NCBI GenBank assembly: GCA_964528565.1
Contig: CAZGSP010000039.1
Coordinates: 10,411-74,410, forward strand
Direction of reading: 5' to 3'
DNA length: 64,000 bases
Source of the DNA: an uncultured Pseudomonadales bacterium
GTDB taxonomy: Bacteria > Patescibacteriota > Microgenomatia > UBA1400 > MFAQ01
Position 1 is the first letter of the stretch. Each line of letters opens with the position of its first letter. Under the pieces are notes generated by a model that was not told where the DNA came from, searched no databases, and saw only the letters and a program-made list of their open reading frames with translations. Both the position numbers and the translations under genes were made by a program. Shown one piece after another: positions 1,718 to 63,224 of the stretch.

Positions 1718-2656
1718 TTATTCCTGCTCTGTGAAGCCATATTTCTTAAGGAGAGACTCTGTCTCTTTCCGGTGTTTATCGGTATAAATAAGACTGAAAT
1801 ATTTGGAATAAATCAGAAAATGATAGAAGGTATAAACAATCGAGACAATAAATCCATGAGTCCCTTCTTTATAAAATTTCCAGACAAAATACTTGTATAG
1901 GAATTCTTTCTTGGGAAGAAAGATCATTTTGAGAACAAGGATGGGTTTTGAGATGGAGGGATCTTTCTCGAAGAGAATTTTGGCTTCGCGGGTAGAATAA
2001 TGGTCGATTTTGCGGACAAAGTCAGAGATCGTAGGGTGAGATAGGTGAACCAAATGACCCCTAAGGGTTACGATCCCTTTCATTTTGTTCAAATACCAAG
2101 TCCTAAGCAAGGGTACCTTTAAGACCAATCTGCTCAACCGGTTTGGACTTTGCAAACTATTTGATTGGATTCCAAACCCTTCTGCGGTCCGGGCAGTTTG
2201 ATATGAGAAAGAACCCTTTCGAAATAGCCGGACAAAGGGTTTATTTTTTTGATCACTTTTATCAAAAATCTTTCCGAATTCGTAGTTTAGGAAACCTGTT
2301 TGGTAAATATCGGCTTTTTTGGGATATGTTCCGGAGACTATTGATATTATTTCTTTTTGAAGAGTCTCATCCATACGTTCATCGGCATCCAGTATTAAAA
2401 CCCAGTCATTTTTTGCTTCATTTGCGCCCCAATTTTTGTTATTAAAAACAATGCCTTTTGATTCCCCTTTATCCAGAAGCACTTTACATCCATGCTTCTC
2501 GGCTATGTCCGCGCTATTATCCACAGTACGCGAGTCGACGACGATAATTATTTCATCGGTAAAGTTCTCGATATGAGCGAGAAAGGATGGCAGGAGCTTC
2601 TCTTCGTTTAAGATAGCGGTGACGACAGAAAGGGGTGGGTTGGATGTATTAGACAT
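1718..2656 (-). CDS. Glycosyltransferase family 2, D-x-D-E-R subfamily.
   Basis: Motifs LSVVTAILNEEKLL ... DEIIIVVDSRTVDNS ... WVLILDADERMDETL (GT2 DxD-type). The track start at 2671 is a TTG. The first ATG (MSNTSNPP...) is at 2656, which removes the overlap with the upstream gene. Confidence 0.7.
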   Translation of the reverse strand: MSNTSNPPLSVVTAILNEEKLLPSFLAHIENFTDEIIIVVDSRTVDNSADIAEKHGCKVLLDKGESKGIVFNNKNWGANEAKNDWVLILDADERMDETLQKEIISIVSGTYPKKADIYQTGFLNYEFGKIFDKSDQKNKPFVRLFRKGSFSYQTARTAEGFGIQSNSLQSPNRLSRLVLKVPLLRTWYLNKMKGIVTLRGHLVHLSHPTISDFVRKIDHYSTREAKILFEKDPSISKPILVLKMIFLPKKEFLYKYFVWKFYKEGTHGFIVSIVYTFYHFLIYSKYFSLIYTDKHRKETESLLKKYGFTEQE

Positions 2657-2660
2657 GTGG

Positions 2661-4481
2661 TTATTTCGCAAACAGATAATTAAACTGAACAGTGTTTGAC
2701 GGAGCCCTGTCTAATGGTACTACCTTAATCGGACCAGACTTCGTAAGATCCGGGCTCGTTCTAAAGATTATTTTATCATCGGACCAATAGATCATATATT
2801 CTCCCTGCTCGATATCCCCAATATATAGTTTACCTACAAACGGAATATTGCGGAAGTTCTTACCGTAAATAACTACATCGGTCCAGGCTTCGCTCGTTAC
2901 GTCGGGAGAAACGGTAAGAATCTTGGGGAGCGTTTCGAATTCGATGGACTTGGAAACGATTTTCCCCGAAAGCAGATTGAAGGCCAAAATGGTCAGCATG
3001 AAGGCATAAATGGTTTTCTGGGTGACCTTTTTGAATACCCCAAAAGAGAAAAGGAGAAAAATAAGTTCGGGGATTAGCAAAGTGAGTAAATATTTCTGTG
3101 TGTAAGTATCCGGATAAAAAACCATAAACTTGGGCAGAACCCGATAGATATCCAATACAGGTAATAGAACAAATAAGTAAATAACCAAAATGGTTAACAA
3201 AACTACCAAGAGGGACACAATAAAAAATGAAAATATCTCCTTAACCAATCGAAGAATGGTCCTGAGCCAAAAGATAAGATCCTTTTCTTGTTTCGGATGA
3301 TTACGAATAATGGCCTCTAAGGAAAGCTTGTTTAAAGTGTTTAGATAAAAATTACTGAATTTTTTAGCATACACAGGAAGATCCCTAACCCAGTAGTTCT
3401 GAGCGACTTGGAACCGGTGGAAATTACTGAAGAAAGATTCCAGGCTGAAGGTAGCCGCGGGCCGGTATTTGGCCTCGTAAACTTGCTGTACTACGGTGAT
3501 GCAGAGAAAGAGATAGGCCCAAACGGCCGTTTTTTCGGCATGGGCTTGGTAACCAAAAATAAGCATTACAGGGGTTAAAACAAGGAAACCAAGAGCAAAG
3601 ACGGCGGCAACTCTGGACTCGAAGCGAAATCGCCGAACCACGAGAGCCCAAAAGAAAAGGAGGGAAAGAAAAAGAAAGTCGTAGCTTTTGGTCAGCCAAA
3701 AGACATCGTAAAGGGAAAAGGACAAGGCAATAAGAGTCAGATATTGATAGCTCAAGCCCTTTGTAAGCAAGAAGACAAAATAGAGAAGAAGGGGAAGAAA
3801 GAAAAAGAAAGTATTTAGAAGGATTTCCGGGTCACCGAAGAGATTGAAGAGTTTGTTGGTGATGAAGTAAATAAGTAACCTTCTATCGGAGAGTAGTTCG
3901 GCTTTGGGGAAAGAGGATTTGGCTGTAAATACCGGTGGTGTTTGATAATCCAGAAAAATGCCACTGCCGGTAGCCCCTCTAAGCGACTCCAACTGAAACT
4001 CGTAGTTCTTGCTGTCCGAGTTACTAATAACAGGAAAACCAAAGGGAAAGTGTTTATTGGGAAGAAATTGATCAGTCTCGTATTTGGCTTCGTAATACCA
4101 CCGATCTTGACCTTGTTCTTTGAGGCGGAACACCAAAGTGTCTTTGCTATCCCGATTCTGATTATTGAAACGAAGGGAGATAATGCCTAAATTGGTGTAT
4201 TTTGAGCGGAAAGTGCCCCAGACTTTATCCCCCTTTAGTAGTTCGCCGGACCTGCTAGCGACCATTTCATCCAGTGTACGCACATCCAGATTGGTGGCTC
4301 CGTATTCACCGGCCTGGAGATAGTTTAGCAAGCTAAATGCACCGATAACAAAAAGAAACAGAGGAAATATATACCATGTCAGGATAAATCTAATCTTTTG
4401 TTTCACAAAGCTATTATATAGATATAAATATCTAGGAAAGAAAATGAAAGACACTATTGAGAGTTTTTGCCAGACCTCCAC
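2661..4481 (-). CDS. Large polytopic membrane protein with a soluble C-terminal (probably extracytoplasmic) domain. Function unknown.
   Basis: 606-aa ORF with multiple TM segments and a hydrophilic C-terminal ~80 aa (…IYGKNFRNIPFVGKLYIGDIEQGEYMIYWSDDKIIFRTSPDLT…). The track start at 4481 is a GTG and overlaps the upstream GT2 by 50 nt. An in-frame GTG near 4406 (VKQKIRFILTWY…) is an alternative start. Confidence 0.45.
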   Translation of the reverse strand: MEVWQKLSIVSFIFFPRYLYLYNSFVKQKIRFILTWYIFPLFLFVIGAFSLLNYLQAGEYGATNLDVRTLDEMVASRSGELLKGDKVWGTFRSKYTNLGIISLRFNNQNRDSKDTLVFRLKEQGQDRWYYEAKYETDQFLPNKHFPFGFPVISNSDSKNYEFQLESLRGATGSGIFLDYQTPPVFTAKSSFPKAELLSDRRLLIYFITNKLFNLFGDPEILLNTFFFFLPLLLYFVFLLTKGLSYQYLTLIALSFSLYDVFWLTKSYDFLFLSLLFFWALVVRRFRFESRVAAVFALGFLVLTPVMLIFGYQAHAEKTAVWAYLFLCITVVQQVYEAKYRPAATFSLESFFSNFHRFQVAQNYWVRDLPVYAKKFSNFYLNTLNKLSLEAIIRNHPKQEKDLIFWLRTILRLVKEIFSFFIVSLLVVLLTILVIYLFVLLPVLDIYRVLPKFMVFYPDTYTQKYLLTLLIPELIFLLFSFGVFKKVTQKTIYAFMLTILAFNLLSGKIVSKSIEFETLPKILTVSPDVTSEAWTDVVIYGKNFRNIPFVGKLYIGDIEQGEYMIYWSDDKIIFRTSPDLTKSGPIKVVPLDRAPSNTVQFNYLFAK

Positions 4482-5223
4482 GGTGTTTTCGTATATAAAC
4501 GTTCAGTCCCTGCCGGTAGTTTAGGTTTTTTTGCCTGGTGTCTTGGTCGGAACTGGCTCCTCCAAAGTGAGTTATCTTCATATTCGGATTGTACAAGACC
4601 TTTATTCCGGCCTTTTTTAGTCTATAAGAGAAATCGAGATCTTCAAAATACATAAAAAAGTTTTTTTCATCCAGGAGACCCACCCGTTGAAGAACAGAGT
4701 CGTGGATCATCATGGCCGCACCGGTAAGCAATTCAACTTCCGTTGTCTTGCGGACTTCGGAACATTTCAGGAAACGTGGTCTGGCGAAAAGAAAGTTTAT
4801 CGGGTTGCGAAAAAGTGAATCAAAATAACCTACATTGTTCTGGGTTTTTCCGTCAGGCTGTATGAGTTTTGGGGCGGAGACAAGATATTTACTCTTCTTG
4901 GTTTCGGATAATAGTGCCAAAACATCTTCCGTGTTCACCAAAGTATCGCTATTTAGAAGAAACAACCACTCTCCGGAGGCCCTTGAGAGACCATAGTTAT
5001 TTCCGCCGGAAAATCCAAGATTTTTCCCGGTGAAATAATAGTGAACGTCGTTCCTTTTTGGCAATCTTTTGCTTAGAGTCTCAATCGGACTATTGTCCAC
5101 CAGGATTATTTCTACACCCGCGTGTGTCTTAAGTTGCCGCAAAAGGTTAAGGATCAGATCGTCGGTACAGTAATTGATGATGATGATACTTAAATCAAGT
5201 TCTTTTACTTTTCGATCTGCCAT
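4432..5223 (-). CDS. Glycosyltransferase family 2.
   Basis: LSIIIINYCTDDLILNLL ... VEIILVDNSPIE ... GFSGGNNYGLSRASGEWLFLLNSDTLV. This is the typical GT2 nucleotide-sugar binding fold (DxD/ED motifs). ATG start confirmed. Confidence 0.7.
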   Translation of the reverse strand: MADRKVKELDLSIIIINYCTDDLILNLLRQLKTHAGVEIILVDNSPIETLSKRLPKRNDVHYYFTGKNLGFSGGNNYGLSRASGEWLFLLNSDTLVNTEDVLALLSETKKSKYLVSAPKLIQPDGKTQNNVGYFDSLFRNPINFLFARPRFLKCSEVRKTTEVELLTGAAMMIHDSVLQRVGLLDEKNFFMYFEDLDFSYRLKKAGIKVLYNPNMKITHFGGASSDQDTRQKNLNYRQGLNVYIRKHRGGLAKTLNSVFHFLS

Positions 5224-7900: not shown

Positions 7901-10201
7901 TTAGCGTGTTTGGCTACGCTTTGTACATAATAAATAGATGAGACTGGAAATAAAAACTGTTCCTGAGACTAGCTCCCCTAAATATAACAGCCGCTGCGGC
8001 CAAAACACAATAATAAGTGAAAAGTTTAGGGATCCATCCGGATTAGTTGTGCACAAAACGCCTTCCCCTAGACAAAGGTCCTTGGGATTTAGAAGCCAGC
8101 CGTTAGCGTAACCGTTCACCACAAAATGATTATCGTCTTCGAGATTCTTTTTGAACCAGGTGTCGTATAACCTACCAATTCCGTTTTTGGTGTTAGGGTA
8201 CAGATACCAATTTTTGTTATAGGTCTCACTAAAGACCACCTGTACCGGACTACTCACTCTCACCAGAGAAATGGTATATTCTGTGGGACTAATTTTTGAG
8301 TAACTAATTTGTGAATTTGCCTGATACGGACTAGCGGAGATCTTATTAATAACAGTTGACTTTGTCTTGTTTTGTTGGGTAAAAATCACGGAAAATGTTT
8401 TATCTCCTTTGATTGAATCGAGGATGTCCGGAAACGCATTAATTTCACGGGTGGTAACGACAGCCTGCCCCGGTAGATAGATATGAGGGAAAAGGCCGGT
8501 CCGCGGTATTTCATATAAATTGAAATAGGTATTCGACTGATTCAGGGATACGACTCCCGCTTCAACCATGTGACGCATTTTACTTTTGGTCGAATTGTAA
8601 AAAACCTCTGCCACATCGTTATGATAAAGTAGATATTTGACATTCAATATTGACGCCAGCTTCACAATCCAATCTCCGGATGATGATGCCTCCGAGTTCC
8701 AATCCTCTCCATAACTCCATATCCCAAACGGAGACGGGTTATTCATTTGGACCACCGGCTTTTCAAACAGTTGAATGGTAGGGTCCGAACCAACCACTTT
8801 CCATTTTGGATAATTTACCCAGCCGACTGAGTTAATTACCGACCATGGCATACTCATAATTTTATAATCCTCTTTCTCCTCTTTTAGTTTATCCGCTAAG
8901 AAAAAATATTCCTGAGGAATTTTGATGACATAGGCGAACCTGCTATCGTGGTATGATTTGTGGTCTTCCAGCCCAACCTTGTAAAGGTAGACATTTCTCG
9001 ATAAAACAACTAAGAAGGGGACGGTGGCGGTAAACAACACAAAATACAACCACCTTTTGGAAATTTTCTTAAAGGAAATCAAGATGGTTCCCAGATAGAA
9101 AAAAGGCAAATAAATTAAAGATTTGTCTATGCTCCGTATGGAATTTAGGATGACGTTGTTGAACAAAAAGAGGGTTTGTTCTTTGGAAACAATTCCCCGT
9201 CCTTTGTTGGCGAGTAAGATAACGAACAGGGCCATTGCCGTTAGGATAAGAATATTGGTTGAATCCTCTTCGTGTTTCTCTTTTTGATTCTTAACTACTT
9301 GGGAAAGAAAAAACAATACCGGAATAACCAGGACACCGGTTAGAACCCAGTTCGAGAAAAGGAGGGTTATGTTGAGCACACTATCAGAAAGAAACAGGGC
9401 ATCTTTCAAGCTTAAGGATTGCCAATAGATCCAGCCGGCAAGGTCAAAGGACATGGTTCCGGCCTTGAACCCCTGAGACATTGAAAACAAGGTCGGTGTT
9501 TGAGGGATAATGCTAACAAAGGTAATCAGAAAAAGACTGAGGTAATAAACAAACATCTTGATCACAAAAATGAGATCCGTACTTATTTGAGAGACATAAT
9601 GGTGCAAGATGATAAAGATGAATAACAGGATATTCAAGGAAACAAAGAAGGGTGCGTTTCCAAAGGCGGTGTTGGCAAAGAACATGACTATGACGAGCTT
9701 GGCCAGATCTCTTGAAAGCAAACGATTGGAAGAAAAATATTGCTTTGTAAACAGAAAAATCACCGGCACAAAAACGTAGATTGAGATATATGGGGCAGGG
9801 GTGAGGGCTCTAATAAAGGTGAATGCGTTTAGGGCGTAGAGGGTTGAAACCGTCACCGACCAAAGAGTGTTTTTCTTTTTAAGGAATTCTCTAGAGAAGA
9901 CAAAAAAAGATATAAATCCACCCATAAATATAAAAATGGGGTTGAACAAAAAGCCATAGTTGTGTCCGGAGGCGGACTCAAAGAGTGAAAGAAGCCAATA
10001 ATAAGGATAATAAGAAAAAAGAGTGCTCATGTTCCCTTCACCAAACGTTTGCCAGAGTTGACCAAGCTGATACAAAATGTAGGGGTAGTTGATTATTGTG
10101 CCAAAATCTCCGCCGGCAAAGACATAACCATGAGGGAGATTCTGTCTGGTGATAGCAATGAACAAAGAAAATATGGGAATTAAACTTAAAAATAAACTCA
10201 T
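7901..10201 (-). CDS. Large polytopic membrane protein with a long extracytoplasmic C-terminal domain. Possibly YfhO-like or GT-C-like.
   Basis: 766 aa. About 12 predicted TM segments in the N-terminal ~450 aa, then ~300 aa of hydrophilic C-terminus. The N-terminal region (…GGDFGTIINYPYILYQLGQLWQTFGEG…) resembles YfhO-type topology only weakly. Confidence 0.4.
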   Translation of the reverse strand: MSLFLSLIPIFSLFIAITRQNLPHGYVFAGGDFGTIINYPYILYQLGQLWQTFGEGNMSTLFSYYPYYWLLSLFESASGHNYGFLFNPIFIFMGGFISFFVFSREFLKKKNTLWSVTVSTLYALNAFTFIRALTPAPYISIYVFVPVIFLFTKQYFSSNRLLSRDLAKLVIVMFFANTAFGNAPFFVSLNILLFIFIILHHYVSQISTDLIFVIKMFVYYLSLFLITFVSIIPQTPTLFSMSQGFKAGTMSFDLAGWIYWQSLSLKDALFLSDSVLNITLLFSNWVLTGVLVIPVLFFLSQVVKNQKEKHEEDSTNILILTAMALFVILLANKGRGIVSKEQTLFLFNNVILNSIRSIDKSLIYLPFFYLGTILISFKKISKRWLYFVLFTATVPFLVVLSRNVYLYKVGLEDHKSYHDSRFAYVIKIPQEYFFLADKLKEEKEDYKIMSMPWSVINSVGWVNYPKWKVVGSDPTIQLFEKPVVQMNNPSPFGIWSYGEDWNSEASSSGDWIVKLASILNVKYLLYHNDVAEVFYNSTKSKMRHMVEAGVVSLNQSNTYFNLYEIPRTGLFPHIYLPGQAVVTTREINAFPDILDSIKGDKTFSVIFTQQNKTKSTVINKISASPYQANSQISYSKISPTEYTISLVRVSSPVQVVFSETYNKNWYLYPNTKNGIGRLYDTWFKKNLEDDNHFVVNGYANGWLLNPKDLCLGEGVLCTTNPDGSLNFSLIIVFWPQRLLYLGELVSGTVFISSLIYLLCTKRSQTR

Positions 10202-11517: not shown

Positions 11518-11657
11518 GTCTGGTTGTTTGGTGTTTGTTATTATTTTAACTTAATGTCATTCCCGTATTGCAATGAGACGTTAACTTAAACACATATTAT
11601 AAGTGTTTGTGTATTATAATCGGGTATAATCCGAATTCATTTAATATAACCAAACTC
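11518..11657 (+). promoter_or_regulatory. Divergent intergenic region. Candidate promoter for the plus-strand sugar-activation operon.
   Basis: 140 bp, AT-rich. Two TATAAT hexamers (about 11615-11620 and 11625-11630) sit upstream of the ATG at 11658. There is a direct repeat TTAACTTAA (about 11548 and 11581). No Shine-Dalgarno is evident. Confidence 0.35.
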
Positions 11658-12191: not shown

Positions 12192-12192
12192 A

Positions 12193-13011: not shown

Positions 13012-13012
13012 T

Positions 13013-14599: not shown

Positions 14600-14603
14600 C
14601 ATT

Positions 14604-16032: not shown

Positions 16033-16065
16033 GGGCGGACCGGTATCAATTGATGAGCCAATAAA

Positions 16066-16857: not shown

Positions 16858-16861
16858 CAGG

Positions 16862-18442: not shown

Positions 18443-18506
18443 GAGTTTGATTATTTATTTGGAAGGTTTTGACAATAAGAGATTGTAACCCCTGTTGGTG
18501 TATTTT

Positions 18507-20342: not shown

Positions 20343-20350
20343 ATTTTTGT

Positions 20351-53070: not shown

Positions 53071-53100
53071 AGGTTGAGAGTGTTAGAATTAAAATTGAAA

Positions 53101-55347
53101 ATGAAAAAAATCATAAGACTGTGGCCAGTTCTAGTTTTTGCCGTCGCCTGTTTTGTCTATTACTGGAAAGTATTCCTCAAGGGTTATGTTCCGTTCCCCG
53201 GAGACCTAATGGTGGGTGCTTATCTTCCGTGGCTGGAAAATAAATGGGGTTTCCCAACGGGAGTACCCGTAAAGAACCCTTTGATCTCCGATATATTTTC
53301 GCAATTTTATATGTGGAAAAGTTTGATTGGAGAAGGCTGGAGACATCTGACCATACCGTTATGGAATCCTTATTCTTATTCGGGATATCCACTTCTGGCG
53401 ACTTTTCACTCCGGAGTTTTTTATCCTTTTACCTTTATTTATGCTCTCCTGGGAGATATTAAGGGGTGGAATTTCTTAGTAATCTTTCCCTCTTTTGCCA
53501 CGGCTCTAACAATGTATTTCTTCTTGCGCCAAATTAAAGTCGGCAAGGTTGGCGCAGTTGTCGGAGGCTTGGTTTATGCGTATTCCGGATTTGCGATTAG
53601 CTGGGCACAGTTTGTGACCGCTGATCAGGCAATGATCTGGATGCCTCTGGTTTTAATTATTCTCGAAAAATATTTTGAATCAAAAAAGAAATATTATTTA
53701 TACTGGCTACCGATACTTTTCTTCTTATTGGTGACGGCGGGGCATTTTCAAATAATGGTGTATATCACAGTGCTATCCGCGGCGTACTTCGTCTGGAAGT
53801 GGATAGAAAAAAGGGACCTTAAGGATCTGGCGGTGATGATTGTTCCCGGGGTATTAACCTTTGGCCTTTCGGCTTTTCAACTGTTACCGACCTTGGAACT
53901 GACAAAGTACGGATTAAGATCGGTGGAAAATTATATCGCCCAATATAACTACGGTTTGCTACCGATAAAATATTTGGTGACATTAATTGCGCCAGATTAT
54001 TTTGGTAATCCGGCTACCGGCAATTTTTTTGGAGTTTTTAATTATCATGAGGCTATTTTTTATACCGGAATATTTGCGGTGTTCTGTTTCTTACTATCGC
54101 TTTTTATGTACCGTTCCAACAAGTACATTCGATTCTTTGTTTGGGTAGTGGTCTTTGCTTTTTTGTTTGGATTTGACACTTTTTTAGGCAAAGCGGTTTA
54201 TATATATAACGTCCCGGGAATCGCGACAAGTGCAGCGGGGAGAGTGGCCGTAATTTTTTCGATGGGTCTTGCGGTTTTAGCCGGAATTATAATTTCAAAC
54301 CTCGAAAAGATAAGTTACAAGAAAATACTGCTGACTATAGGAATCGTCTCAACAATATATATCTTGTTGTATTATCTGGCTAAGTTTAGTGACGGGATGT
54401 TGCTTACTCCCGATAATCCAAATATGCTGTTGGCGGTCAGGCGTGCAGTAACATTGCGCAATCTCTTGCTTCCGGGTGCTTTGGTTGGAGCATATTCGAT
54501 ACTTCTGCTTCTTTCTCGAAAATGGCGGATTTTTTCGGCCGCCATCATAGTCCTTGTCTGCCTGGAGATGTTTCGGTTTGGATGGAAATACATCCCGTTT
54601 GTCCCCGAAAGAATCGTCTATCCGGAAACTCCCATTACTCAGTACCTGGAAGAAAAGGGTAGGTCCGAGGTTTTTAGAATCGACCGTGAGCGGGCTGAAG
54701 TATTGCCTCCGGCCACTTGGATGCAGTACCGACTTATGAGCCCTTCAGGATACGACCCAATGGCTATAAGGGGCTATGCCGAGATCTATCAGAAAGTAAT
54801 CAATGGGAATTTAAGTGGACAAGTAGGAAGATATTCCGAGTTGGAGAGATATGATTCAAAGGCTCTGGGGGAATTCAATGTGAAATATTTGGTGGTGGTG
54901 AAGAGAGATAAAGTTGGAAAGTTGGGAGGAGATTTTATCAACTTTTCCATTGATCAAAAGGAATGGAAGAAAGCTTTTGAAACCTCGGAAACAGCGATTT
55001 TGGAAAACACAAATTACCGGCCCAGAGCAAGATTTGTCGATTCAACAGATAGTGAAGCAAAAATTACTTCTTATACCCCAAACACCATCAAAATTTCATT
55101 TAGTAAGGGAGCCGGTAAAACTCTTTTGCTCGCCGATACCTGGTATCCGGGATGGAAGGCTTATGTAAACGGCTCTGAGGTGGTGATTGATAAGTGTGAT
55201 GGCATTTTTAGATGTATTAAATTAACCGACGATAATGGAGAAGTTATCTTTGATTACCGGCCGGCCAGTTTTCGGATAGGATTAATGATCAGTATTTTGA
55301 GTTTGATAGGGACAGTGATCGCCTTGGCTGTCCTAAAAAAGAAGTGA
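53101..55347 (+). CDS. YfhO-family polytopic membrane protein (GT-C-like) with a large C-terminal extracytoplasmic domain.
   Basis: GYVPFPGDLMVGAYLPWLEN … LISDIFSQFYMWKSLIGEGWRHLTIPLWNPYSYSGYPLLATFHSGVFYP matches the YfhO N-terminal signature (…P-L-W-N-P-Y…G-x-P). 757 aa. Confidence 0.55.
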   Translation: MKKIIRLWPVLVFAVACFVYYWKVFLKGYVPFPGDLMVGAYLPWLENKWGFPTGVPVKNPLISDIFSQFYMWKSLIGEGWRHLTIPLWNPYSYSGYPLLATFHSGVFYPFTFIYALLGDIKGWNFLVIFPSFATALTMYFFLRQIKVGKVGAVVGGLVYAYSGFAISWAQFVTADQAMIWMPLVLIILEKYFESKKKYYLYWLPILFFLLVTAGHFQIMVYITVLSAAYFVWKWIEKRDLKDLAVMIVPGVLTFGLSAFQLLPTLELTKYGLRSVENYIAQYNYGLLPIKYLVTLIAPDYFGNPATGNFFGVFNYHEAIFYTGIFAVFCFLLSLFMYRSNKYIRFFVWVVVFAFLFGFDTFLGKAVYIYNVPGIATSAAGRVAVIFSMGLAVLAGIIISNLEKISYKKILLTIGIVSTIYILLYYLAKFSDGMLLTPDNPNMLLAVRRAVTLRNLLLPGALVGAYSILLLLSRKWRIFSAAIIVLVCLEMFRFGWKYIPFVPERIVYPETPITQYLEEKGRSEVFRIDRERAEVLPPATWMQYRLMSPSGYDPMAIRGYAEIYQKVINGNLSGQVGRYSELERYDSKALGEFNVKYLVVVKRDKVGKLGGDFINFSIDQKEWKKAFETSETAILENTNYRPRARFVDSTDSEAKITSYTPNTIKISFSKGAGKTLLLADTWYPGWKAYVNGSEVVIDKCDGIFRCIKLTDDNGEVIFDYRPASFRIGLMISILSLIGTVIALAVLKKK

Positions 55348-56934
55348 TCATCTAGAGCATTGGGCCATCATCTGCACTTTGGCGTGCCAGGGAAAAATGA
55401 CTTCCTTGACCAGACATAATTTAGAGAAATTTCCCAGCCAAGCTGCTGTTCTTTGTGGCATATCGAAATCTTCTTCAATGATCAGGAAGGTTAAATTATT
55501 TTCACCTACGGATCTTTTTTTCGTCCACAGTTTATCAACGTCTTTAATATATTCGGGTTGATTGGGAAGATAAGCAACGTCGGCCGGTTGATAGCCGAAG
55601 GTTTTGGTGCCGTACCACCAAAAAAGATGGTTATAAGGAAAATCGTAGACGGAAGGAAGGTAACTATAGACCTTGAATCCCTTTCCGGCGGCGTTTTGAT
55701 ATACCCAATCAATTGCCCGGAGTTCGTTTCTCATATTACTTCTGTCGTCCGATGGTTTAAAGGCGACATCTCTGGTGTAGTCTATTTGTGACTTGAGCGA
55801 ATAGTAAATTGTCAGTCCTACAAGACAAAGGGCAAAGACTTTAATGACCGGAGTTTTTGATTCAAAGAGAAAATTTACAAAGGAGGCGAAGAAGATGACG
55901 ATGGGTATGGATAAACCAAGCGTGTACCAAATCTTCAGACTTTGGGGGAAAAGAAGATAAAAAACGGCGGCAAATAGAATGAAATAAAAAGACACGGACC
56001 AGACTGCAAATTCATCGGTCTTTGACTTTTCCCGAAGGGTCAAGAGAATAAAGAGAAAAATAATTAGACCAATGATAAACAGGTACGGCAGGTAGTTTGG
56101 CGGCAGATGACTGGAGCGGAAGACCAAAAGTTGGAAGTGATCCCAACGCTGAAGTAGTTTGTCACTCAAACTTATTTTTTCTCCCAACATGGTCCCCTTT
56201 CCGGTAACTTCACCAATTAACAACTTGGTCATAATAAACCCATGCTTTAACTCAAAAAGGGCCTGCGGAAGTAAGGTGATGGTGAATCCGATTATTAAAT
56301 TTAATAATTTTTTGATATTGGTTTTATCAAATAAAAGATAGATTAAGGCAAAAGGAAAAAGAAGAATACCAAAAGCGGCCTCAATTTGCAGAGCTAGCCC
56401 AGCGACCAGCCCTAACAGGAGAGTGTTTCTATCACTTTTATGACGTATGGCAGCTACGAGGACCGCAAAAAAGAAGATCGTAAAGAAAGGCATGGAGTTG
56501 GCATTCCAAAAGTAGCGGGCGGTATTAAACCCGGTGGGCATAAGAAAGAGAAAGAGAGCAGTAATACCGGCCAGGGAAACACTCTTCTTTTTGAGAACCA
56601 GCCACAAGACGATGACCGATATTTGATACCAAAGTATCTGCCAGTAGACTATGGCCGATGGGTTTCCTCCACTTAGAATAAAGGGGATCAGGTTAAAGTA
56701 ATACCAGAATGGTCCTAAGAGGACCCCATTGATGCTGGTAGTGGGTCCGACAAGTCTGGGGGAAAAGGTAACAACCATATGACGGATATCGACCATGTCC
56801 CGACCCTGATCCATGGTAAAGGGATAATTGCCACCCGTCACTTCGGCTACTTTGATGATTGATGTGGTTACCAGAATAATGACCAAAGGGATCGGCCAAA
56901 TATTTTTTGAAATAACATTCAAGAGTTTCTTCAT
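55348..56934 (-). CDS. Polytopic membrane protein, paralog D of the D-x-G-R-D / GP…GP-x-[YW]-Y family.
   Basis: FTMDQGRDMVDIRHMVVTFSPRLVGPTTSINGVLLGPFWYYFNL. The start is moved to the ATG (MKKLLNVISKNIWP…), giving a 4-nt overlap with the upstream GT4. Confidence 0.5.
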   Translation of the reverse strand: MKKLLNVISKNIWPIPLVIILVTTSIIKVAEVTGGNYPFTMDQGRDMVDIRHMVVTFSPRLVGPTTSINGVLLGPFWYYFNLIPFILSGGNPSAIVYWQILWYQISVIVLWLVLKKKSVSLAGITALFLFLMPTGFNTARYFWNANSMPFFTIFFFAVLVAAIRHKSDRNTLLLGLVAGLALQIEAAFGILLFPFALIYLLFDKTNIKKLLNLIIGFTITLLPQALFELKHGFIMTKLLIGEVTGKGTMLGEKISLSDKLLQRWDHFQLLVFRSSHLPPNYLPYLFIIGLIIFLFILLTLREKSKTDEFAVWSVSFYFILFAAVFYLLFPQSLKIWYTLGLSIPIVIFFASFVNFLFESKTPVIKVFALCLVGLTIYYSLKSQIDYTRDVAFKPSDDRSNMRNELRAIDWVYQNAAGKGFKVYSYLPSVYDFPYNHLFWWYGTKTFGYQPADVAYLPNQPEYIKDVDKLWTKKRSVGENNLTFLIIEEDFDMPQRTAAWLGNFSKLCLVKEVIFPWHAKVQMMAQCSR

Positions 56935-57995
56935 AATAAAACCTTGATTTTTTCGTAGAAGTTTTCTGTCGAGAAAATCTTTGATCTTTCCAGGGCACAT
57001 GTGGACATTCCGATCTGCTCTTTGGGGTTGTCTATTAGAGTGGCGGTCACTTTGGCGATCTCCGTATCATTCTCACATAGGAAGCCGGAGTCGGGTGTAA
57101 TAATTTCTTTCTGACCACCTTTGTTGATGACTATCGGAATACAGCCGGAGGCCATAGCTTCCACCGTGGTCATACCAAAGTGCTCCACCTTGTCCGGATC
57201 GGTTTGCTCATTGACTTCGTAACCGGCGGCATGCCAGAAAAATCTGGCTTTGGAGTAAAGCTTCTTTAATTCGTTAAAGTCCGGATTAACAACAAACTCG
57301 ACAGGGAGTCCTTTAGCCATCTTAACTATTTTTTGCATGATCACCTCGTCACCCTTTAAACCACCGGCCAAAATGAGTTTGTAGCCCTTGACCTTCTTGG
57401 ATAACTTTTTGAAGGCCTCGATAAGGACGTCCTGCCGTTTGCCGTGTGAGGGAGAATCGAAACGGGCAACCGAAAGAATAACATCTTCTTTTTTACCCGG
57501 AGTGAAACTATCTATGTCGATAGGCGGATAAAGGACGAATCCTTTGTCTTTAGGTAGATTTTTTTCAAGGACGTTTCGGGTAAAGTCGGAGTTGTAAACG
57601 AACTTTTTGATAAAGACATTCTTGAGATTGTTTACCGTGGGATTGCCACCCAACTTTTTGAAGGGTACCTGAAAGTGAATGATATTGTTCTTGGAAAACA
57701 AGAAGGGGAGACTTCCGTCACTGACCCAAAAGATCAGATCGTAGTCTTTGGTGAACTGGAGCCGTTCGGTGTAAGCGGATTTTTGACTGCAAAGGCCGTA
57801 TGCTTCCTCATCAATAGATATTTTGGAGAGATCCAGACCAAAGCGAAGCTCGGCGGACTTTAATTCATTTTTACTGGGCCAGGCCAGGACGACCGAGTAA
57901 CCGTTTTTAATTAATCCCAGGGCGAAGGTAAGGATATATCTCTCCCCTCCTCCAAGGGTATCGATGTACGGATCGAAAATTAAAGCTTTTTTCAT
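56931..57995 (-). CDS. Glycosyltransferase family 4 (GT-B).
   Basis: …EHFGMTTVEAMASGCIPIVINKGGQKEII… and an N-terminal GGGERY motif. Confidence 0.7.
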   Translation of the reverse strand: MKKALIFDPYIDTLGGGERYILTFALGLIKNGYSVVLAWPSKNELKSAELRFGLDLSKISIDEEAYGLCSQKSAYTERLQFTKDYDLIFWVSDGSLPFLFSKNNIIHFQVPFKKLGGNPTVNNLKNVFIKKFVYNSDFTRNVLEKNLPKDKGFVLYPPIDIDSFTPGKKEDVILSVARFDSPSHGKRQDVLIEAFKKLSKKVKGYKLILAGGLKGDEVIMQKIVKMAKGLPVEFVVNPDFNELKKLYSKARFFWHAAGYEVNEQTDPDKVEHFGMTTVEAMASGCIPIVINKGGQKEIITPDSGFLCENDTEIAKVTATLIDNPKEQIGMSTCALERSKIFSTENFYEKIKVLL

Positions 57996-58008: not shown

Positions 58009-59649
58009 CTATTCTAATCCAGATGACGATTTTTCTGACTTGTAGATAGACACAAGTGTATTCGAATATATCAAGGGATAGCCAAATTTTTCAAAATTGG
58101 CTGATGAGGATGCATAGATGTATTTTATCCCATATTCGGAAATGATGTTTTCAATAGAGATTACATCGGTGCCGGACAGGAAAAAAGATTCCTGGACCGA
58201 CTCCCTTTTGGTGCCATCAATGCCCAGCAACCATGGTATTATACCGCCGGTAAAAAACGTCCTTCTCTCGGCGAGGGCCGATACTTTAGTTTTTTTGTTG
58301 TCAAAAATCGGATCAACCATGACGATCGCATCTTTGCCGGAATTTATTTTTAGATAGTCCAGAGCCATGATTTCTTCCTTGGGAATCACATATTCATGGA
58401 ATTTACCGGAGTTAAAGAAGTCGTGACCTAGAGAGTAAATAACCAAGGGTGATAGAACGAATAAAAGAAGCAGACCGTATTTATTTTTGGCTAAGAAAAC
58501 CCCCAAAAGAAATCCTAGGAAAATAACAGCAACCTGTCCAAATTGAACCGCATTAAATGGATCCGGTTGCGGAGTAATCACCAGGGGTAGGGACAGGGAA
58601 ACTAAGATACAAAGACCAAGAAAAATATTTTCTTTGAATGATCTTTTGAACGATTTGATTAAATATATCAAACCTAATAATTTGATCCAAAAATTGCCCA
58701 AAATATAAATGAATATTTTTTCCATTTCCATCTGAGCGAGCCGAGGCCAATTATTTTTTGATTGATAGTGTAAGTATTTCAGGTAAAAACCATTCAAGCT
58801 AAACCTCTCCGGATCTTCAACCATCTTGGTCAGGAGCCAGCCCGGTCTAAAAGTGAGAGGTGCATTATGACTAAAACCTGTCTTATCGCTGATTGAGAAA
58901 AAGATAATACCCGACAGAATAATGAGTAAGATGGCGGGAAAGATGTTTTTATATTTATTTTTTTCGATTTGAAGTAGACAGACAACACCAAAGGCAACGA
59001 CCATCGGTAAGGCAAAAAATATTTTGACTCCAAATAGAAGAGACAAAGTAATCGCGGCAAGATAACCGTATTTTATTGATTTGGATGATATCCATTGAAG
59101 GACTAAATAAGTACCCAGAATAATCAGGATATATCCAATACCGGTATGTAAATTGATTAGCTGGTCGTAAGGCTGGTCTAGTATGAAGGCGTTGCCGCTC
59201 CAATCCGAACCCTTTATAAACAATGGTTTAATAAAAGCTGCCGAACCAAAAAATAAAGTAGTAATGACACATATCACAGACCAAAAATCGTTTAGAGAAA
59301 ATTTCTGGGCTAACTTAAAAATGAGAAATACCAATAAAAAGGTAACCGATAGTGAACCTATTTGAAAGTAAGTAATAGCAATCGGAATACCGGAAAGAAG
59401 GCTGATCGTGCCCCAGAGAGCATCGCTGAAATAATGATAATTTTTTAGAGGAATTCCACTCATTAACGGAAAAGTTGGGGGGATTTGCTTCGTCGTCTCC
59501 ACCGCTAAACTGAGATGCCAAAGATTGTCTCCGCTGCCATTTATGAGCATCGTACCGTTCGGAAGAAGCCTACTAAGAAGCAAGGGAGAGGTGAGAATAA
59601 CCGCAAAGATTAGAAGAAATAATAGAACTATTATTCTTGCTTTTCCCAT
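58009..59649 (-). CDS. Hypothetical polytopic membrane protein with a soluble C-terminal domain.
   Basis: 546 aa. About 12 TM segments, then a hydrophilic C-terminal ~120 aa. It sits just downstream of a DxDER-type GT2, a GT2/GT-C-like pairing. Confidence 0.4.
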   Translation of the reverse strand: MGKARIIVLLFLLIFAVILTSPLLLSRLLPNGTMLINGSGDNLWHLSLAVETTKQIPPTFPLMSGIPLKNYHYFSDALWGTISLLSGIPIAITYFQIGSLSVTFLLVFLIFKLAQKFSLNDFWSVICVITTLFFGSAAFIKPLFIKGSDWSGNAFILDQPYDQLINLHTGIGYILIILGTYLVLQWISSKSIKYGYLAAITLSLLFGVKIFFALPMVVAFGVVCLLQIEKNKYKNIFPAILLIILSGIIFFSISDKTGFSHNAPLTFRPGWLLTKMVEDPERFSLNGFYLKYLHYQSKNNWPRLAQMEMEKIFIYILGNFWIKLLGLIYLIKSFKRSFKENIFLGLCILVSLSLPLVITPQPDPFNAVQFGQVAVIFLGFLLGVFLAKNKYGLLLLFVLSPLVIYSLGHDFFNSGKFHEYVIPKEEIMALDYLKINSGKDAIVMVDPIFDNKKTKVSALAERRTFFTGGIIPWLLGIDGTKRESVQESFFLSGTDVISIENIISEYGIKYIYASSSANFEKFGYPLIYSNTLVSIYKSEKSSSGLE

Positions 59650-60434
59650 TCGGAAATTATTTGGCGGTCGATGTTATCGTAAGTATCTTTTAAAGAAGGC
59701 TTTCTTTGCATCTCCCAAAGACGCTCGTAGGTAACGAACTTACTGAACATCTGGTAGATGATCTCGATCCAGCCCTCGGTGCCGTCCCGCCATAACCCTT
59801 GTCGGACACACCGGTACCAGAACTCGGAAAACATAATGCGGATAAAACGCCAACCGGCCATAGGCGGGTGATGGGCTGAAAGAAGCATTTGGGCTTCGTA
59901 TTTGGACCAGACTAGGGTGTTCGGGAGTTTTTCGTCGATATTTTTATGAGAAAGGTGGACCATCTGTTGTTTGAGCTTACCTACCGGGCCATTGATCTTC
60001 GGCTGTTCGTGAAGCTTGCCTTCCCAACGGACGAGTGCGGAACGCTTCATAAGACGGAGGACCCGGGGATCTCCCCAGTGACCCAGATGTTTCCCTAGAA
60101 AGACTTCGTAGCGGCTAATGGTGTAGGCGGCGTAGTCCGGATTTTGAATGGTGGTCAGAATTTCTCTGGCGAGCTTGACCGGGATCCTTTCGTCGGAGTC
60201 CAGATAGAGGAGCCACTCCCCTTTGGCCGCCTTGGCGCCGTCGTTGCGCCACTTGGAAAAACTATCGGTAGTGGTGTGGACGATCTTAACCCCCATTTGG
60301 CGACAAATATCCAGAGTCCCGTCGGTAGAGCCCGTATCTACGGCAATTATTTCGTCGGCAAATTGAGAAGATTTGATCGCCGGAATGATCTCGTTTTTGA
60401 CGTTGCGAGAAAGAATGATGATAGATAGTTTCAT
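59631..60434 (-). CDS. Glycosyltransferase family 2, D-x-D-E-R subfamily.
   Basis: MKLSIIILSRNVKNEIIPAIKSSQFADEIIAVDTGSTDGT … WLLYLDSDERIPVKLAREI. The start is moved to the internal ATG, since the 171-nt N-terminal extension in the track overlaps the upstream gene. Confidence 0.7.
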   Translation of the reverse strand: MKLSIIILSRNVKNEIIPAIKSSQFADEIIAVDTGSTDGTLDICRQMGVKIVHTTTDSFSKWRNDGAKAAKGEWLLYLDSDERIPVKLAREILTTIQNPDYAAYTISRYEVFLGKHLGHWGDPRVLRLMKRSALVRWEGKLHEQPKINGPVGKLKQQMVHLSHKNIDEKLPNTLVWSKYEAQMLLSAHHPPMAGWRFIRIMFSEFWYRCVRQGLWRDGTEGWIEIIYQMFSKFVTYERLWEMQRKPSLKDTYDNIDRQIISEWEKQE

Positions 60435-60435: not shown

Positions 60436-61365
60436 TTATTGTTTTCCGGGTACGGATACCTTTTTGTTCCAGCTACCCCAGCCAAAATTCCGGGTGAAGA
60501 AGTCCCTGACGGCGATTTTCTGAGCCGGAGTACCGATAAGTAATTTTTTGACCGCCTCGCGGATGAGAGCAAACTTGGTGCGGGTCCCGGCATAGGTAGT
60601 GCCAAAGAGGAGTCTGTTCCTTGTCAGAAAATAATCGTTTAAGGGCGATCCAATACCCGAGCTCTGGGCCACTTTGTGCCAAAGCTTAATTTGGGGATCG
60701 ATGACCAATTTAAGTCCGGCTTTTTTGACGCGCATACAAAGATCGGAGTCTTCGAAATAAAGACAGTAGCGTTCATCAAAAAGACCTACATTTTCCAAAA
60801 CACTTCTTCTCACGATAAATAAACAGCCGGTAATAAAGTCCGTAGTCCTGATGCCGTCGAACTGCCCTCTGTCCACCTCATCGACACCGAGATGGGTGGC
60901 GTAGACATTGTTCCAGTCGTGTTTGCCTCCGGCGTACCAGATGACTTTACCCAAGTCGGCCGGTAGGTAATTTTCCTTGAACTCGAAGCCTTTGGCAAAA
61001 TAAATGAGTCCACCGACAACGCCGACACCGGTGTCGCTAATGGGAGAGGACAAAATGTTTTTGACTAAGTCTTTGGGAACCACCGTGTCGTTATTGATGA
61101 GAACCACGATGTCGACCTTGTCCTTGAGAGCGCGTTTGAAGCCGATGTTGTTCCCGGCGGCAAAACCCACGTTTCCGGGTGAGTCCAAGTAGACGGTGTG
61201 GGGGTATTTGACCAGGATTTTCCGGAGACTTTCCGAGCAAGAGTTATCCACACAGTAAGTAACTATTTCGACACCTTTGGGAAGGGAGTTTTCCTCCAGT
61301 TGAGTGACGACTCCGATCGTATCTTCGTCACTGTGAAAGTTAACCGTAATAAAGCCAATTTTCAT
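60436..61365 (-). CDS. Glycosyltransferase family 2 (rhamnosyl/galactosyl-transferase-like).
   Basis: IGFITVNFHSDEDTIGVVTQL … VEIVTYCVDNSCSES … NVGFAAGNNIGFKRALKDKVDIVVLINNDTVV. Confidence 0.7.
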   Translation of the reverse strand: MKIGFITVNFHSDEDTIGVVTQLEENSLPKGVEIVTYCVDNSCSESLRKILVKYPHTVYLDSPGNVGFAAGNNIGFKRALKDKVDIVVLINNDTVVPKDLVKNILSSPISDTGVGVVGGLIYFAKGFEFKENYLPADLGKVIWYAGGKHDWNNVYATHLGVDEVDRGQFDGIRTTDFITGCLFIVRRSVLENVGLFDERYCLYFEDSDLCMRVKKAGLKLVIDPQIKLWHKVAQSSGIGSPLNDYFLTRNRLLFGTTYAGTRTKFALIREAVKKLLIGTPAQKIAVRDFFTRNFGWGSWNKKVSVPGKQ

Positions 61366-61408: not shown

Positions 61409-62005
61409 CTATTTTGATCTAAAGTACTCTTCTCCTTCTTCCAGACTCTCTTTTATTTCTGCAGGATCGATACCGAGAGCCACCATGGAGGCGTTGTCGG
61501 TAGGTAAAATGAGGGCTCTTTGTTTCCAAAACCTGACCGATTCTTCATACTCCGGCGTCCCGGGGGTGAGACTTGGGTCGCTGGGCTCGCGTCTGGCGCA
61601 CGGACCCCAATAAGCGGTGTAGAGCTCAAATTTATCAGCCTGACGTTTCAAAACTATGGTCATCAAGTTTGTCTCCAGCTCTTTCCCTCCGACCACAAAA
61701 CGGGTGTACCAGGTACGGGGCTTGCGTTTGGCAAAAACCACTTTATCACCTTCGTTGATCGGCACACAGATCGAACTTCCGGGGATCCCTTCGGTTTCCA
61801 CTCCAAGGTGGGCAATCCCGTCTTTGTCGACCGATAGAGTGGCCGAGTCTATTTTTGACAACGCAGGCCCGATGGCCTCGTGGATATCTGGGTGGGTATA
61901 GTAGTGAGACTCCGGGGTGACAAAAACCTCTTCTCCGGATCCGAGGAATCCAATGGTTTGGGCAGTGTCCGCCTCTCCGGCTTTGGTTGTCTCAGGTGAA
62001 TTCAC
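61409..62005 (-). CDS. Hypothetical soluble protein (198 aa) in a compositionally atypical, GC-richer segment.
   Basis: No recognisable motif. Acidic and Gly/Pro-rich. It is the only sizeable ORF across 61.4-62.0 kb, and several antisense ORFs appear here, which is consistent with locally elevated GC. Confidence 0.4.
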   Translation of the reverse strand: MNSPETTKAGEADTAQTIGFLGSGEEVFVTPESHYYTHPDIHEAIGPALSKIDSATLSVDKDGIAHLGVETEGIPGSSICVPINEGDKVVFAKRKPRTWYTRFVVGGKELETNLMTIVLKRQADKFELYTAYWGPCARREPSDPSLTPGTPEYEESVRFWKQRALILPTDNASMVALGIDPAEIKESLEEGEEYFRSK

Positions 62006-62050: not shown

Positions 62051-62290
62051 CTACAATCTTTGAGGCAACTGGAGGTGAGCCTCGATTTTGGTTATCCGTT
62101 TTTCGTGCCCCATGTACTCGTGGTCAAAGAAATCAATCGTACCATCCAGATCTTTTTGAATTTTATTTAGCTTCTTGTGGATGGGTTTTAGCTTTTCTTC
62201 TAGTTTTTGCTCAAGCTTTTCTTCTACAACCAGCTCAACTTCCTCTCTAATTATGGTTCTGAGTTTGGAGAATTCTTGGTCAGTGATCAT
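62051..62290 (-). CDS. Small hypothetical protein (79 aa), predicted coiled coil.
   Basis: EEVELVVEEKLEQKLEEKLKPIHKKLNKIQKDL is heptad-like and charged. Confidence 0.3.
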   Translation of the reverse strand: MITDQEFSKLRTIIREEVELVVEEKLEQKLEEKLKPIHKKLNKIQKDLDGTIDFFDHEYMGHEKRITKIEAHLQLPQRL

Positions 62291-62309
62291 AATTCCAGTA
62301 TAACAATTA

Positions 62310-63224
62310 TCAAAGCAATTTTCGTTTTAATTTGAGAAAGAAGCTTTCGGTTTTTGACTCGGAATTTTCGAGTTTCGAGGTCAGAAACCAGTAGCGGAAC
62401 TCTTTGAATTTTTCCCGGAAACCGGCTTGCCAAATAGGAGTGAACTCTCTTTCGTTGCGGGGTTTGCTTCCTTCCGCTTGCCAAACCTTGAGATAGACAA
62501 GCAAAATGGAGAAAAATTGAAGCAAAGCGACCACCAGTCCGTGAAGACCGTCTTTGTAGCCTTCACCGGCAAAGAAACGGGAGAGAAACTCTCCGGTGGG
62601 TTTTTTGATCAGATCGGCCGGGTCGAACTTATAACCCGAGTCGATAAGCTCTTTGGACTGCTGACCGGAGTAGCGCAGTGCCCTCAGGAAATATTCGTCG
62701 ATCGTGCGGTAATGATGGTGCTCCAGTGCTTGGCCCACTTCTTCTTCCAGATTGATGCCCGTACCATAGGTTATCGGGACCGAATGAATTTCGTCTTGCC
62801 ATTCGACCGAGCCTTTTTTAAAAAAGCGGATGTTGAAGTCCGGCCACCAGCGGGAGTGCCGGAGCCATTGACCGAATACAAGATTTTTTCGCGGGACGCG
62901 GACAAAATCAACTTCATTTTTGTCGGCAATTTCGATCAACTTGGCGGCTAAAGTTCTCGGAACCCGTTCATCCGCGTCGACAACAAATATCCAGTCACCT
63001 AAAGCCTTCCTGATAGCATAATTCCGGCCGGGTTCGACGTAACCTACCGCTTTGTGATCGTAGATGCGGTCGGTGAATTGCTTGGCGATTTCCTTGGTGT
63101 TATCTTCCGACTCCATATCGACCACGACAATTTCATCACAAAATCCGAGAGACTTGAGACAGTCAAAAATGTTTTCCGATTCGTTCCGGGTATTGACGAC
63201 GGCAGAAATTTTTACTTTGGCCAT
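62310..63224 (-). CDS. Glycosyltransferase family 2, D-x-D-E-R subfamily.
   Basis: ISAVVNTRNESENIFDCLKSLGFCDEIVVVDMESEDNT … WIFVVDADERVPRTLAAKLIEI. Confidence 0.7.
   Translation of the reverse strand: MAKVKISAVVNTRNESENIFDCLKSLGFCDEIVVVDMESEDNTKEIAKQFTDRIYDHKAVGYVEPGRNYAIRKALGDWIFVVDADERVPRTLAAKLIEIADKNEVDFVRVPRKNLVFGQWLRHSRWWPDFNIRFFKKGSVEWQDEIHSVPITYGTGINLEEEVGQALEHHHYRTIDEYFLRALRYSGQQSKELIDSGYKFDPADLIKKPTGEFLSRFFAGEGYKDGLHGLVVALLQFFSILLVYLKVWQAEGSKPRNEREFTPIWQAGFREKFKEFRYWFLTSKLENSESKTESFFLKLKRKLL

Follow-up and report, generated by a model that had tools for sequence, protein, structure and literature searches.

Does a family 2 glycosyltransferase (GT2) encoded beside a polytopic membrane protein necessarily supply that neighbor with a lipid-linked sugar? 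The question is raised by a 64,000-nucleotide stretch of DNA (contig CAZGSP010000039.1, positions 10,411 to 74,410; hereafter, the window) that carries four GT2 genes sharing a D-x-D-E-R motif, each adjacent to a gene for a multi-spanning membrane protein. The initial annotation took these for repeated ArnC/ArnT-like pairs, in which a cytoplasmic GT2 makes a polyprenyl-phosphate sugar that a GT-C glycosyltransferase uses on the outer face of the membrane. Here, we describe the four GT2s, their membrane neighbors and the conservation of their gene order (genes are named by their first coordinate in the window; Table 1). By sequence comparison, the catalytic domain of the four GT2s is that of the clade including GmaR and SunS, which sets them apart from the lipid-sugar donor synthases, and most of their membrane neighbors are identified or predicted as GT-C enzymes. 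We consider it about an even bet that these GT2s use nucleotide sugars to glycosylate acceptors anchored in the membrane, before the GT-C enzymes act.

The four open reading frames (ORFs) are real, occupy the coordinates first given for them and share the pattern DEIIxVD…W…D[AS]DER; both alignment and phmmer identify them as true paralogs. Aligned end to end, they are 26-31% identical, with the D-E pair of DEIIxVD and the D-x-D-E-R motif among the positions that do not vary. In all-against-all phmmer comparisons, they score 53-91 bits against one another; against the remaining eight GT2 genes of the window the scores do not exceed 27 bits, and against Escherichia coli ArnC and GtrB, which give about 155 bits with each other, they are close to 0. 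Scores that are high within the four and low outside indicate a distinct paralog group rather than a chance motif match, and we take the four to be ancient paralogs within one GT2 clade. The Pfam model Glycos_transf_2 (PF00535) matches all of them (2e-11 to 2e-20), covering the first ~94 to ~149 of its 168 positions; no NCBIfam model scores above its cutoff for any of the four, and no TPR domain was matched by Pfam in these proteins of 267-312 aa. Gene 35988 has 5751 relatives, the best 120 of which are 69-100% identical to it. By a hydropathy scan, three paralogs are predicted to have no transmembrane (TM) segment, and 62310 has a single borderline one. In the four GT2s, the <H> of the most hydrophobic 18-mer at the C-terminus is 0.34-0.75, compared with 0.84-0.88 in ArnC and GtrB, and the conserved C-terminal region of ~90 aa ends in a moderately hydrophobic helix. 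We take the four for TM-less, probably membrane-peripheral Leloir glycosyltransferases.

A profile search of the PDB with the four GT2s returned the glycosyltransferase domain of GmaR as the best match (22ao_A, E 7.7e-28, query residues 3-177 aligned to chain residues 8-183), followed by SunS (E 2.4e-13, query 5-151). DPMS (6e-10) and GtrB (6e-4) were matched in the N-terminal part only (query 4-111), and comparison of the four with ArnC plus GtrB by hhalign covered 97 columns (residues 6-107), ending just past the DxD motif. The motif DADLQ(D/N/H), in which the glutamine helps to coordinate the metal, is common to GtrB (residues 94-99), ArnC (100-105) and PfDPMS (89-94), and these three solved polyprenyl-phosphate glycosyltransferases also share two juxtamembrane helices along with TM helices (PMC12690121). 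In all four GT2s the corresponding motif is D[AS]DER[MVI], not DADLQ. Of the four tested features that define the ArnC/GtrB/DPMS type, they possess a GT-A domain with DxD, a trait of GT2s in general that cannot tell the groups apart, and lack the DADLQ motif, homology over the whole domain and the C-terminal TM helices, two of which are found in each of ArnC and GtrB. Some members of the family, such as eukaryotic DPM1, are also TM-less, so that the absence of TM helices is not decisive by itself. Taken together, the DADER motif, the 97-column homology, the lack of predicted TM helices and the phmmer scores near 0 bits rule out direct membership of the four GT2s in the ArnC/GtrB/DPM1 group. 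The identity first proposed for them was thus contradicted by alignment on motif, extent of homology and predicted topology alike, and the idea that they work in the manner of donor synthases is weakened.

Similarity to GmaR and SunS, by contrast with the ArnC/GtrB comparison, where only the nucleotide-binding half is held in common, extends over the entire GT-A domain of ~180 residues, including the acceptor half, and encompasses the motifs DEIIvVD, DADE, R-x-F/Y-K and HEQ; like the members of that clade, the four appear to be soluble, non-processive Leloir enzymes. GmaR (637 aa) also comprises a TPR, a linker and an antirepressor domain, and its glycosyltransferase domain transfers N-acetylglucosamine directly to flagellin (PMC9638930). 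The four GT2s have no TPR or antirepressor domain, in place of which stands the ~90-aa C-terminal region with its hydrophobic helix, and they differ further from GmaR and SunS in being syntenic with GT-C genes. Given that a TPR or helical substrate-recognition domain is missing, they are not orthologs of either protein.

Full-length homologs of the four GT2s, at 31-36% identity, are widespread, occurring in Acidobacteria, Nitrospira, Betaproteobacteria and other groups. In Polynucleobacter, Dechloromonas, Polaromonas and one further metagenome-assembled genome (MAG), the homologs adjoin a heptosyltransferase along with an MsbA-like transporter, a Kdo transferase, or an O-antigen ligase, and in none of these loci is a GT-C gene adjacent. 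Neighborhoods of this lipopolysaccharide (LPS)-core kind are where genes for enzymes acting on a lipid-anchored saccharide are found, which speaks for a membrane-anchored acceptor. The host of the window differs from these Gram-negative bacteria in belonging to the Candidate Phyla Radiation (CPR), members of which, to our knowledge, lack LPS. From their LPS-core gene context, we tentatively take the related GT2s of Gram-negative bacteria to be the LgtF/WaaE group of β-1,4-glucosyltransferases (CDD cd02511); a literature search for a stated relationship between LgtF/WaaE and GmaR yielded nothing usable.

The proposal that the membrane neighbors are GT-C enzymes fared better, being borne out for four of the five (215, 36866, 58009 and 63227) and failing for 2661. 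Gene 36866 matches the Pfam model PMT_2 at 2.7e-12 (47.6 bits against a cutoff of 26.1 bits) and has an invariant D32-E33 in loop 1. The six tandem PMT_2 paralogs between 36866 and 47764, of which it is the last, are 28-34% identical and all retain the D-E pair in loop 1; a PDB sequence search with this family gave a marginal match to ArnT only (0.034). Gene 215 falls just under the PMT_2 cutoff (6e-5, 23.7 bits), and a sequence-level PDB search with its family found nothing meaningful; in hhalign, the family aligns with the tandem PMT_2 paralogs at 97.3% (E 2e-11), its invariant D42 coinciding with their DE motif.

The product of 58009 matches no Pfam model, NCBIfam model or PDB chain by sequence; an exhaustive HMMER search found 765 relatives. 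An AlphaFold2 (AF2) model built from a 60-sequence alignment reached a pLDDT of 94 and a pTM of 0.93, and in a Foldseek search of the PDB with this model the best 30 hits were all GT-C enzymes, among them STT3 (6e-10), DPY19, PglB, AglB, AftA, ArnT (4e-4), AftD, Emb and Pmt1. Superposition on STT3/PglB/AglB, DPY19, AftA and ArnT gives a TM-score of ~0.5 (E 6e-10 to 4e-4). The model has the hallmarks of the GT-C(A) type: it contains about ten TM helices, its first external loop bears the acidic residue D41, and an external α/β domain forms the C-terminus, the difference being that the family is tied to PMT_2 by a remote profile link only (hhalign 94% against the PMT_2 paralogs). D41 is at least 90% conserved in the 60 sequences and starts the first loop helix (39-54) after TM1 in the model, and so provides the conserved acidic loop-1 residue typical of GT-C enzymes, with a putative catalytic role. 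The family of 58009 is thus confidently predicted to have a GT-C fold, a new element in that neither Pfam nor NCBIfam has a model for it. The GT-C nature of 63227 follows by homology to this family, with a correction of its coordinates: the frame is open to base 64000, such that the interval 63227-63940, initially listed, is not a complete gene of 237 aa, and the visible part (63227-64000) matches positions 368-620 of the 58009-family profile only, that is, the C-terminal 40% (E 5e-45). Its ortholog in locus L085 (93-3194; the handles L005 to L090 denote the loci compared here) encodes 1033 aa with the GT-C domain at residues 486-1029; this ortholog also has an uncharacterized N-terminal extension of ~485 aa.

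For 2661, on the other hand, the predicted fold is not that of a GT-C enzyme. The model (pLDDT 85) comprises one N-terminal TM helix, a β-sandwich resembling a carbohydrate-binding module (CBM), about eight TM helices and a C-terminal IPT/TIG β-domain, and the family scores 1.4% against PMT_2 in hhalign; on this model, 2661 is not a glycosyltransferase of the GT-C type. All 59 matches to the family are Microgenomates-type records, with the invariant residues clustered in the β-sandwich. In L088, L089 and L090, a GT-C or polytopic membrane gene lies directly downstream of the homolog, which does not adjoin the GT2, while in the window GT2 1718 sits between 2661 and the GT-C gene 215. The family is a new element, a Microgenomates-specific CBM/IPT membrane protein encoded beside GT-C genes, and may be a glycan-binding accessory.

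Each of the four GT2 genes indeed abuts a polytopic gene, and the spacing of 0-4 nt reported for these pairs holds for all but 59631 and 58009, which overlap by 19 nt. Gene 1718 lies 0 nt from 215 and 4 nt from 2661, 35988 overlaps 36866 by 4 nt, and 62310 is separated by 2 nt from 63227. The chance of a polytopic neighbor for all four GT2s, roughly estimated from the window, is ~0.016. The window contains many polytopic genes, for which reason adjacency within it is weak evidence when taken alone, and conserved synteny in other genomes offers better support. Among ~15 CPR-like loci with an ortholog of 35988 (40-50% identity), about half show tandem PMT_2 genes followed by the GT2 and, as a rule, by a GT4 gene at the first or second position after it. 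Six Microgenomates loci (L005, L006, L007, L009, L012 and L016) have the ortholog directly after a PMT_2 gene, at a spacing of -11 to +21 nt, and tandem PMT_2-type arrays precede it in L005-L009, L012 and L016. An ortholog of the GT4 gene 34988 comes directly after it in L005, L007 and L009, whereas in L008 and L012 one gene lies between the two. Six MAGs that carry GT2 orthologs at 42-49% identity (L007, L009, L010, L012, L015 and L026) are labeled "uncultured Gammaproteobacteria"; four of them (L007, L009, L012 and L015) also have Microgenomates-type PMT_2 genes, and the labels look doubtful.

The remaining pairs recur as well. In L088, the ortholog of 1718 (58% identity) adjoins that of 215, the order being 2661-like, 215-like, 1718-like, shuffled relative to the window with the genes still together. 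In L085, where the order is 63227-like, 62310-like, 60436-like, 58009-like, 59631-like, the ortholog of 62310 (64% identity) directly follows that of 63227, and the ortholog of 59631 (68% identity) adjoins that of 58009 with the two genes swapped. The Levybacteria locus L024 has the order 28852-like, Wzx-type flippase (Polysacc_synt), 62310-like, 60436-like, 59631-like, YfhO-like, and so shares the trio of 62310-like, 60436-like and 59631-like genes with L085; pathways for lipid-linked oligosaccharides are laid out in this way, which speaks for the acceptor-glycosylating role favored here. More distant members of the 58009 family have PMT_2 neighbors and no D-x-D-E-R GT2. The pairing of GT2 and GT-C genes is therefore real in part, and the recurrent linkage of the D-x-D-E-R GT2 clade to GT-C genes in Microgenomates is a new element.

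The best candidate in the window for a polyprenyl-phosphate-sugar synthase, as far as sequence comparison goes, is the product of 28852. Its best NCBIfam match is PpgS, over the full length of the model (7e-14, far below the cutoff), and in hhalign its family aligns with ArnC plus GtrB at 99.2% (E 2e-19) over 168 columns, that is, the whole GT-A domain. A single-sequence search of the PDB returned nothing at 1e-3, the best phmmer hits having E values of 0.008-0.016 (GtrB, 0.016), such that the link to ArnC and GtrB becomes visible only by profile-profile comparison. Orthologs of 28852 at 52-53% identity are present in the clusters of L005 and L009 that contain the ortholog of GT2 35988. Another gene, 24980-25999, which encodes a GT2 with C-terminal TM segments, was considered as a GtrB analog and found no support: the PDB chains that it matches (TarP-like, chondroitin synthase) are generic GT2s aligned over the N-terminal part alone, and neither DPMS nor GtrB is among them. 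Directly upstream of 28852, on the minus strand, 29711-30979 encodes 422 aa with 11 predicted TM segments and is conserved in L007 at 28-30% identity. As a flippase of the Wzx or MurJ type it fails, with no Pfam or NCBIfam match and 2.4% in hhalign against three such flippases; a role as carrier-lipid flippase would be only a guess.

In the scheme that we favor, each D-x-D-E-R GT2 would move a sugar from a nucleotide sugar to a membrane-anchored acceptor at the cytoplasmic face, probably a saccharide carried by polyprenyl-(di)phosphate, otherwise a glycolipid; the glycosylated intermediate would then be flipped, and the adjacent GT-C enzymes would elaborate it outside the cell, drawing on polyprenyl-phosphate sugars made by the separate ArnC/GtrB/DPM1-like GT2 encoded by 28852. 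We infer the nature of the acceptor, the order of the steps and the assignment of 28852 from the clade, the neighborhoods and the conserved gene order described above. Several observations pull the other way. The assignment of 28852 depends on remote similarity, far below the NCBIfam cutoff; the retention of four GT2 lineages, each beside a GT-C gene, is the pattern to be expected of dedicated modules of donor synthase and GT-C enzyme; and PMT_2-type GT-C enzymes normally use a polyprenyl-phosphate monosaccharide, such that a non-donor role for the neighboring Leloir GT2 has to be assumed.

Alternatively, each D-x-D-E-R GT2 could, after all, be a polyprenyl-phosphate-sugar synthase of a non-canonical, TM-less clade that charges the carrier for the adjacent GT-C enzyme, in a two-gene module on the lines of ArnC/ArnT, GtrB/GtrC or Ppm1/PMT, which we regard as doubtful. 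Four distinct paralogs abut GT-C genes, the swapped order in L085 and L088 has not separated the partners, the ortholog of 35988 directly follows a PMT_2 gene in the six Microgenomates loci, and the window has at least 15 GT-C genes and no confident canonical synthase; the conserved, moderately hydrophobic C-terminal helix, moreover, could sit at the membrane interface. Against this, the homology to ArnC, GtrB and DPMS ends just after DxD, the motif is DADER rather than DADLQ, no TM helices are predicted, the nearest characterized relatives glycosylate proteins or peptides, and the proteobacterial homologs reside in LPS-core clusters without a GT-C partner. A separate ArnC/GtrB-like family, that of 28852, co-occurs in the same clusters, distant 58009-family genes do without a D-x-D-E-R neighbor, and all six tandem GT-C enzymes would depend on a single GT2, 35988. 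The most specific version, an unrecognized class of TM-less polyprenyl-phosphate-sugar synthases recruited from the GmaR/LPS-core clade, with each member dedicated to the adjacent GT-C enzyme, seems to us rather unlikely; were it true, small-genome bacteria would decorate their envelope by means of many modular two-gene units of donor synthase and GT-C enzyme, with synthases unrelated in sequence to ArnC, GtrB or DPM1.

Among solved structures, GmaR and SunS, which modify flagellin and sublancin, respectively, are the nearest to the four, and the similarity takes in the acceptor half of the domain, as would be expected if the four GT2s were cytoplasmic protein or peptide glycosyltransferases that merely share an island with GT-C genes. 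We consider this very unlikely, because the C-terminal TPR or helical domains through which GmaR and SunS recognize their substrates are absent from the four, no obvious substrate gene is adjacent, the Gram-negative homologs occur in LPS-core contexts and the synteny with GT-C genes is conserved. It is also quite improbable that there is no specific pairing at all, the GT2s adjoining membrane genes by chance and through the shared ancestry of close genomes and not necessarily acting on the same molecule. Two independent pairs have stayed together through local rearrangement, and the block of GT-C array, GT2 and GT4 recurs across several Microgenomates lineages at only 40-50% protein identity. 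Still, in the hydropathy scan, 21 of the 52 window genes (40%) are polytopic (at least five predicted TM segments) and 35% of the soluble genes have a polytopic neighbor; GT2s of other classes (4432, 51350, 52162 and 28852) abut polytopic genes, too, an adjacent GT-C gene is missing from roughly half of the CPR-like loci in which 35988 has an ortholog, the 2661 family keeps its GT-C neighbor and not the GT2, and distant 58009-family members have no D-x-D-E-R GT2 beside them.

Acceptor glycosylation by the four GT2s, our preferred reading, retains the logic of three-component glycosylation, in which a cytoplasmic GT2 cooperates with an extracytoplasmic GT-C enzyme (PMC11127046). As in the ArnC/ArnT, GtrB/GtrC and DPMS/PMT systems, a DxD-bearing GT2 is encoded beside a GT-C enzyme, and the GT-C side of the likeness is genuine, with PMT_2, YfhO, GT87-like enzymes and one unclassified GT-C family present. 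No small 4-TM gene of the kind of GtrA or ArnE/F is apparent between the tightly packed genes of the pairs, although no dedicated search for such a flippase was run. At the level of the system, the closest analogies are the mycobacterial pathways for phosphatidylinositol mannosides, lipomannan and lipoarabinomannan and the eukaryotic ALG pathway, which combine cytoplasmic GT4 and GT2 enzymes with many GT-C steps; the window likewise mixes GT4, soluble GT2, DPM1-like GT2, GT87-like, PIG-V-like, PMT_2 and YfhO genes. Automatic "ArnC/ArnT-like" labels would imply lipid-A-type or simple side-chain modification, whereas the evidence points instead to a multi-step pathway for a lipid-linked glycan or lipoglycan, with a separate DPM1-like donor synthase.

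Table 1. Coordinates, strand and assignment of the GT2 genes, their membrane neighbors and further features of the window
Coordinates	Strand	Feature	Remarks
1718-2656	-	GT2 paralog 1, 312 aa	PF00535 on N-terminal part only; 0 TM
35988-36869	-	GT2 paralog 2, 293 aa	Strong conservation among Collierbacteria and Woesebacteria
59631-60434	-	GT2 paralog 3, 267 aa	
62310-63224	-	GT2 paralog 4, 304 aa	
215-1717	-	GT-C, PMT_2-like, "DQGRD" subfamily, 500 aa, 8 predicted TM	
36866-38503	-	GT-C, PMT_2-type, last of six tandem paralogs	Immediate upstream neighbor of GT2 35988
58009-59649	-	Predicted GT-C-fold glycosyltransferase, 546 aa, 10 predicted TM	No Pfam/NCBIfam model
63227-64000	-	C-terminal part of 58009-family GT-C gene	Cut by window end
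2661-4481	-	Membrane protein, predicted not GT-C	Annotated start gives 581 aa (2661-4406)
28852-29667	-	TM-less DPM1/ArnC/GtrB-like GT2	
38504-40186, 40183-41877, 41861-43558, 43555-45231, 46073-47764	-	Five further tandem PMT_2-type GT-C paralogs	
45228-46049	-	7-TM gene, 273 aa	Interrupts PMT_2 array
47761-48450		5-TM gene, 229 aa	After PMT_2 array
34988-36001	-	GT4 glycosyltransferase	Pfam Glycos_transf_1 + Glyco_transf_4; directly downstream of GT2 35988
60436-61365	-	Rhamnosyltransferase-like GT2 (Glyco_tranf_2_3)	Between GT2 paralogs 3 and 4
53074-55347	+	YfhO-family GT-C	Divergent from two rhamnosyltransferase-like GT2s
52162-53070, 51350-52261	-	Two rhamnosyltransferase-like GT2 genes	
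55348-57000		Further PMT_2 gene	Opposite strand to, and after, YfhO gene
13013-14599		Nucleotidyltransferase fused to kinase-like region	
16862-18442, 26002-27645		Two B12-binding radical SAM enzymes	
18507-20342		AsnB-like amidotransferase	

The window is almost wholly coding, with the minus strand predominating. Its proteins are identical to those encoded on the 81-kb contig ACD_61, and their nearest named relatives are from Candidatus Collierbacteria and Woesebacteria (Microgenomates, CPR). A gene-by-gene family scan identified ~12 GT2 genes and four that are GT4 or GT1-like, as well as 15 or more membrane genes of GT-C-like character, among which are PMT_2, PIG-V-like, GT87-like, YfhO and unclassified types. 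We regard the window as one extended island for the assembly of cell-envelope glycans in a Collierbacteria-like Microgenomates bacterium. No phosphoglycosyl-transferase for priming was identified among the window genes, and none of those scanned matched the heptosyltransferase, Kdo transferase or O-antigen ligase families. CPR (Patescibacteria) genomes are tiny, and yet at least 64 kb are devoted here to envelope glycosylation; among the papers searched, none mentioned Patescibacteria together with GT-C glycosyltransferases, and literature searches gave nothing usable on GT-C expansions in CPR or Microgenomates.

A block of sugar-nucleotide and modification genes fills the center of the window (~11600-28000). 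Besides the radical SAM, amidotransferase and nucleotidyltransferase genes of Table 1, it contains several methyltransferases (one of the FkbM type) and NAD-epimerase, GT4, shikimate-dehydrogenase-like and HAD-like genes, a content that suggests an unusual modified sugar. A second class of soluble GT2s (51350, 52162, 4432-5223 and 60436-61365) is interleaved with GT-C genes in the same manner as the D-x-D-E-R paralogs. The minus-strand gene 7901-10201 encodes 766 aa with nine predicted TM segments and no Pfam match; a distant relative in L090 (2363-5008, 881 aa) has a weak match to GT-C_AftD, and 7901-10201 may, from this similarity, be another unclassified GT-C enzyme. Genes 62310 and 60436 are separated by a 198-aa soluble ORF on the minus strand (61409-62005), which has no Pfam match and resembles the phage family phrog_23674 (9e-16), and by a non-coding gap of 300 nt. 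The two genes are contiguous in L085, and hence the segment 61409-62309 looks like an insertion. Four long ORFs (44237-44722, 62427-62951, 11682-12269 and 12947-13453) lie inside or antisense to better-supported genes and are probably not genes.

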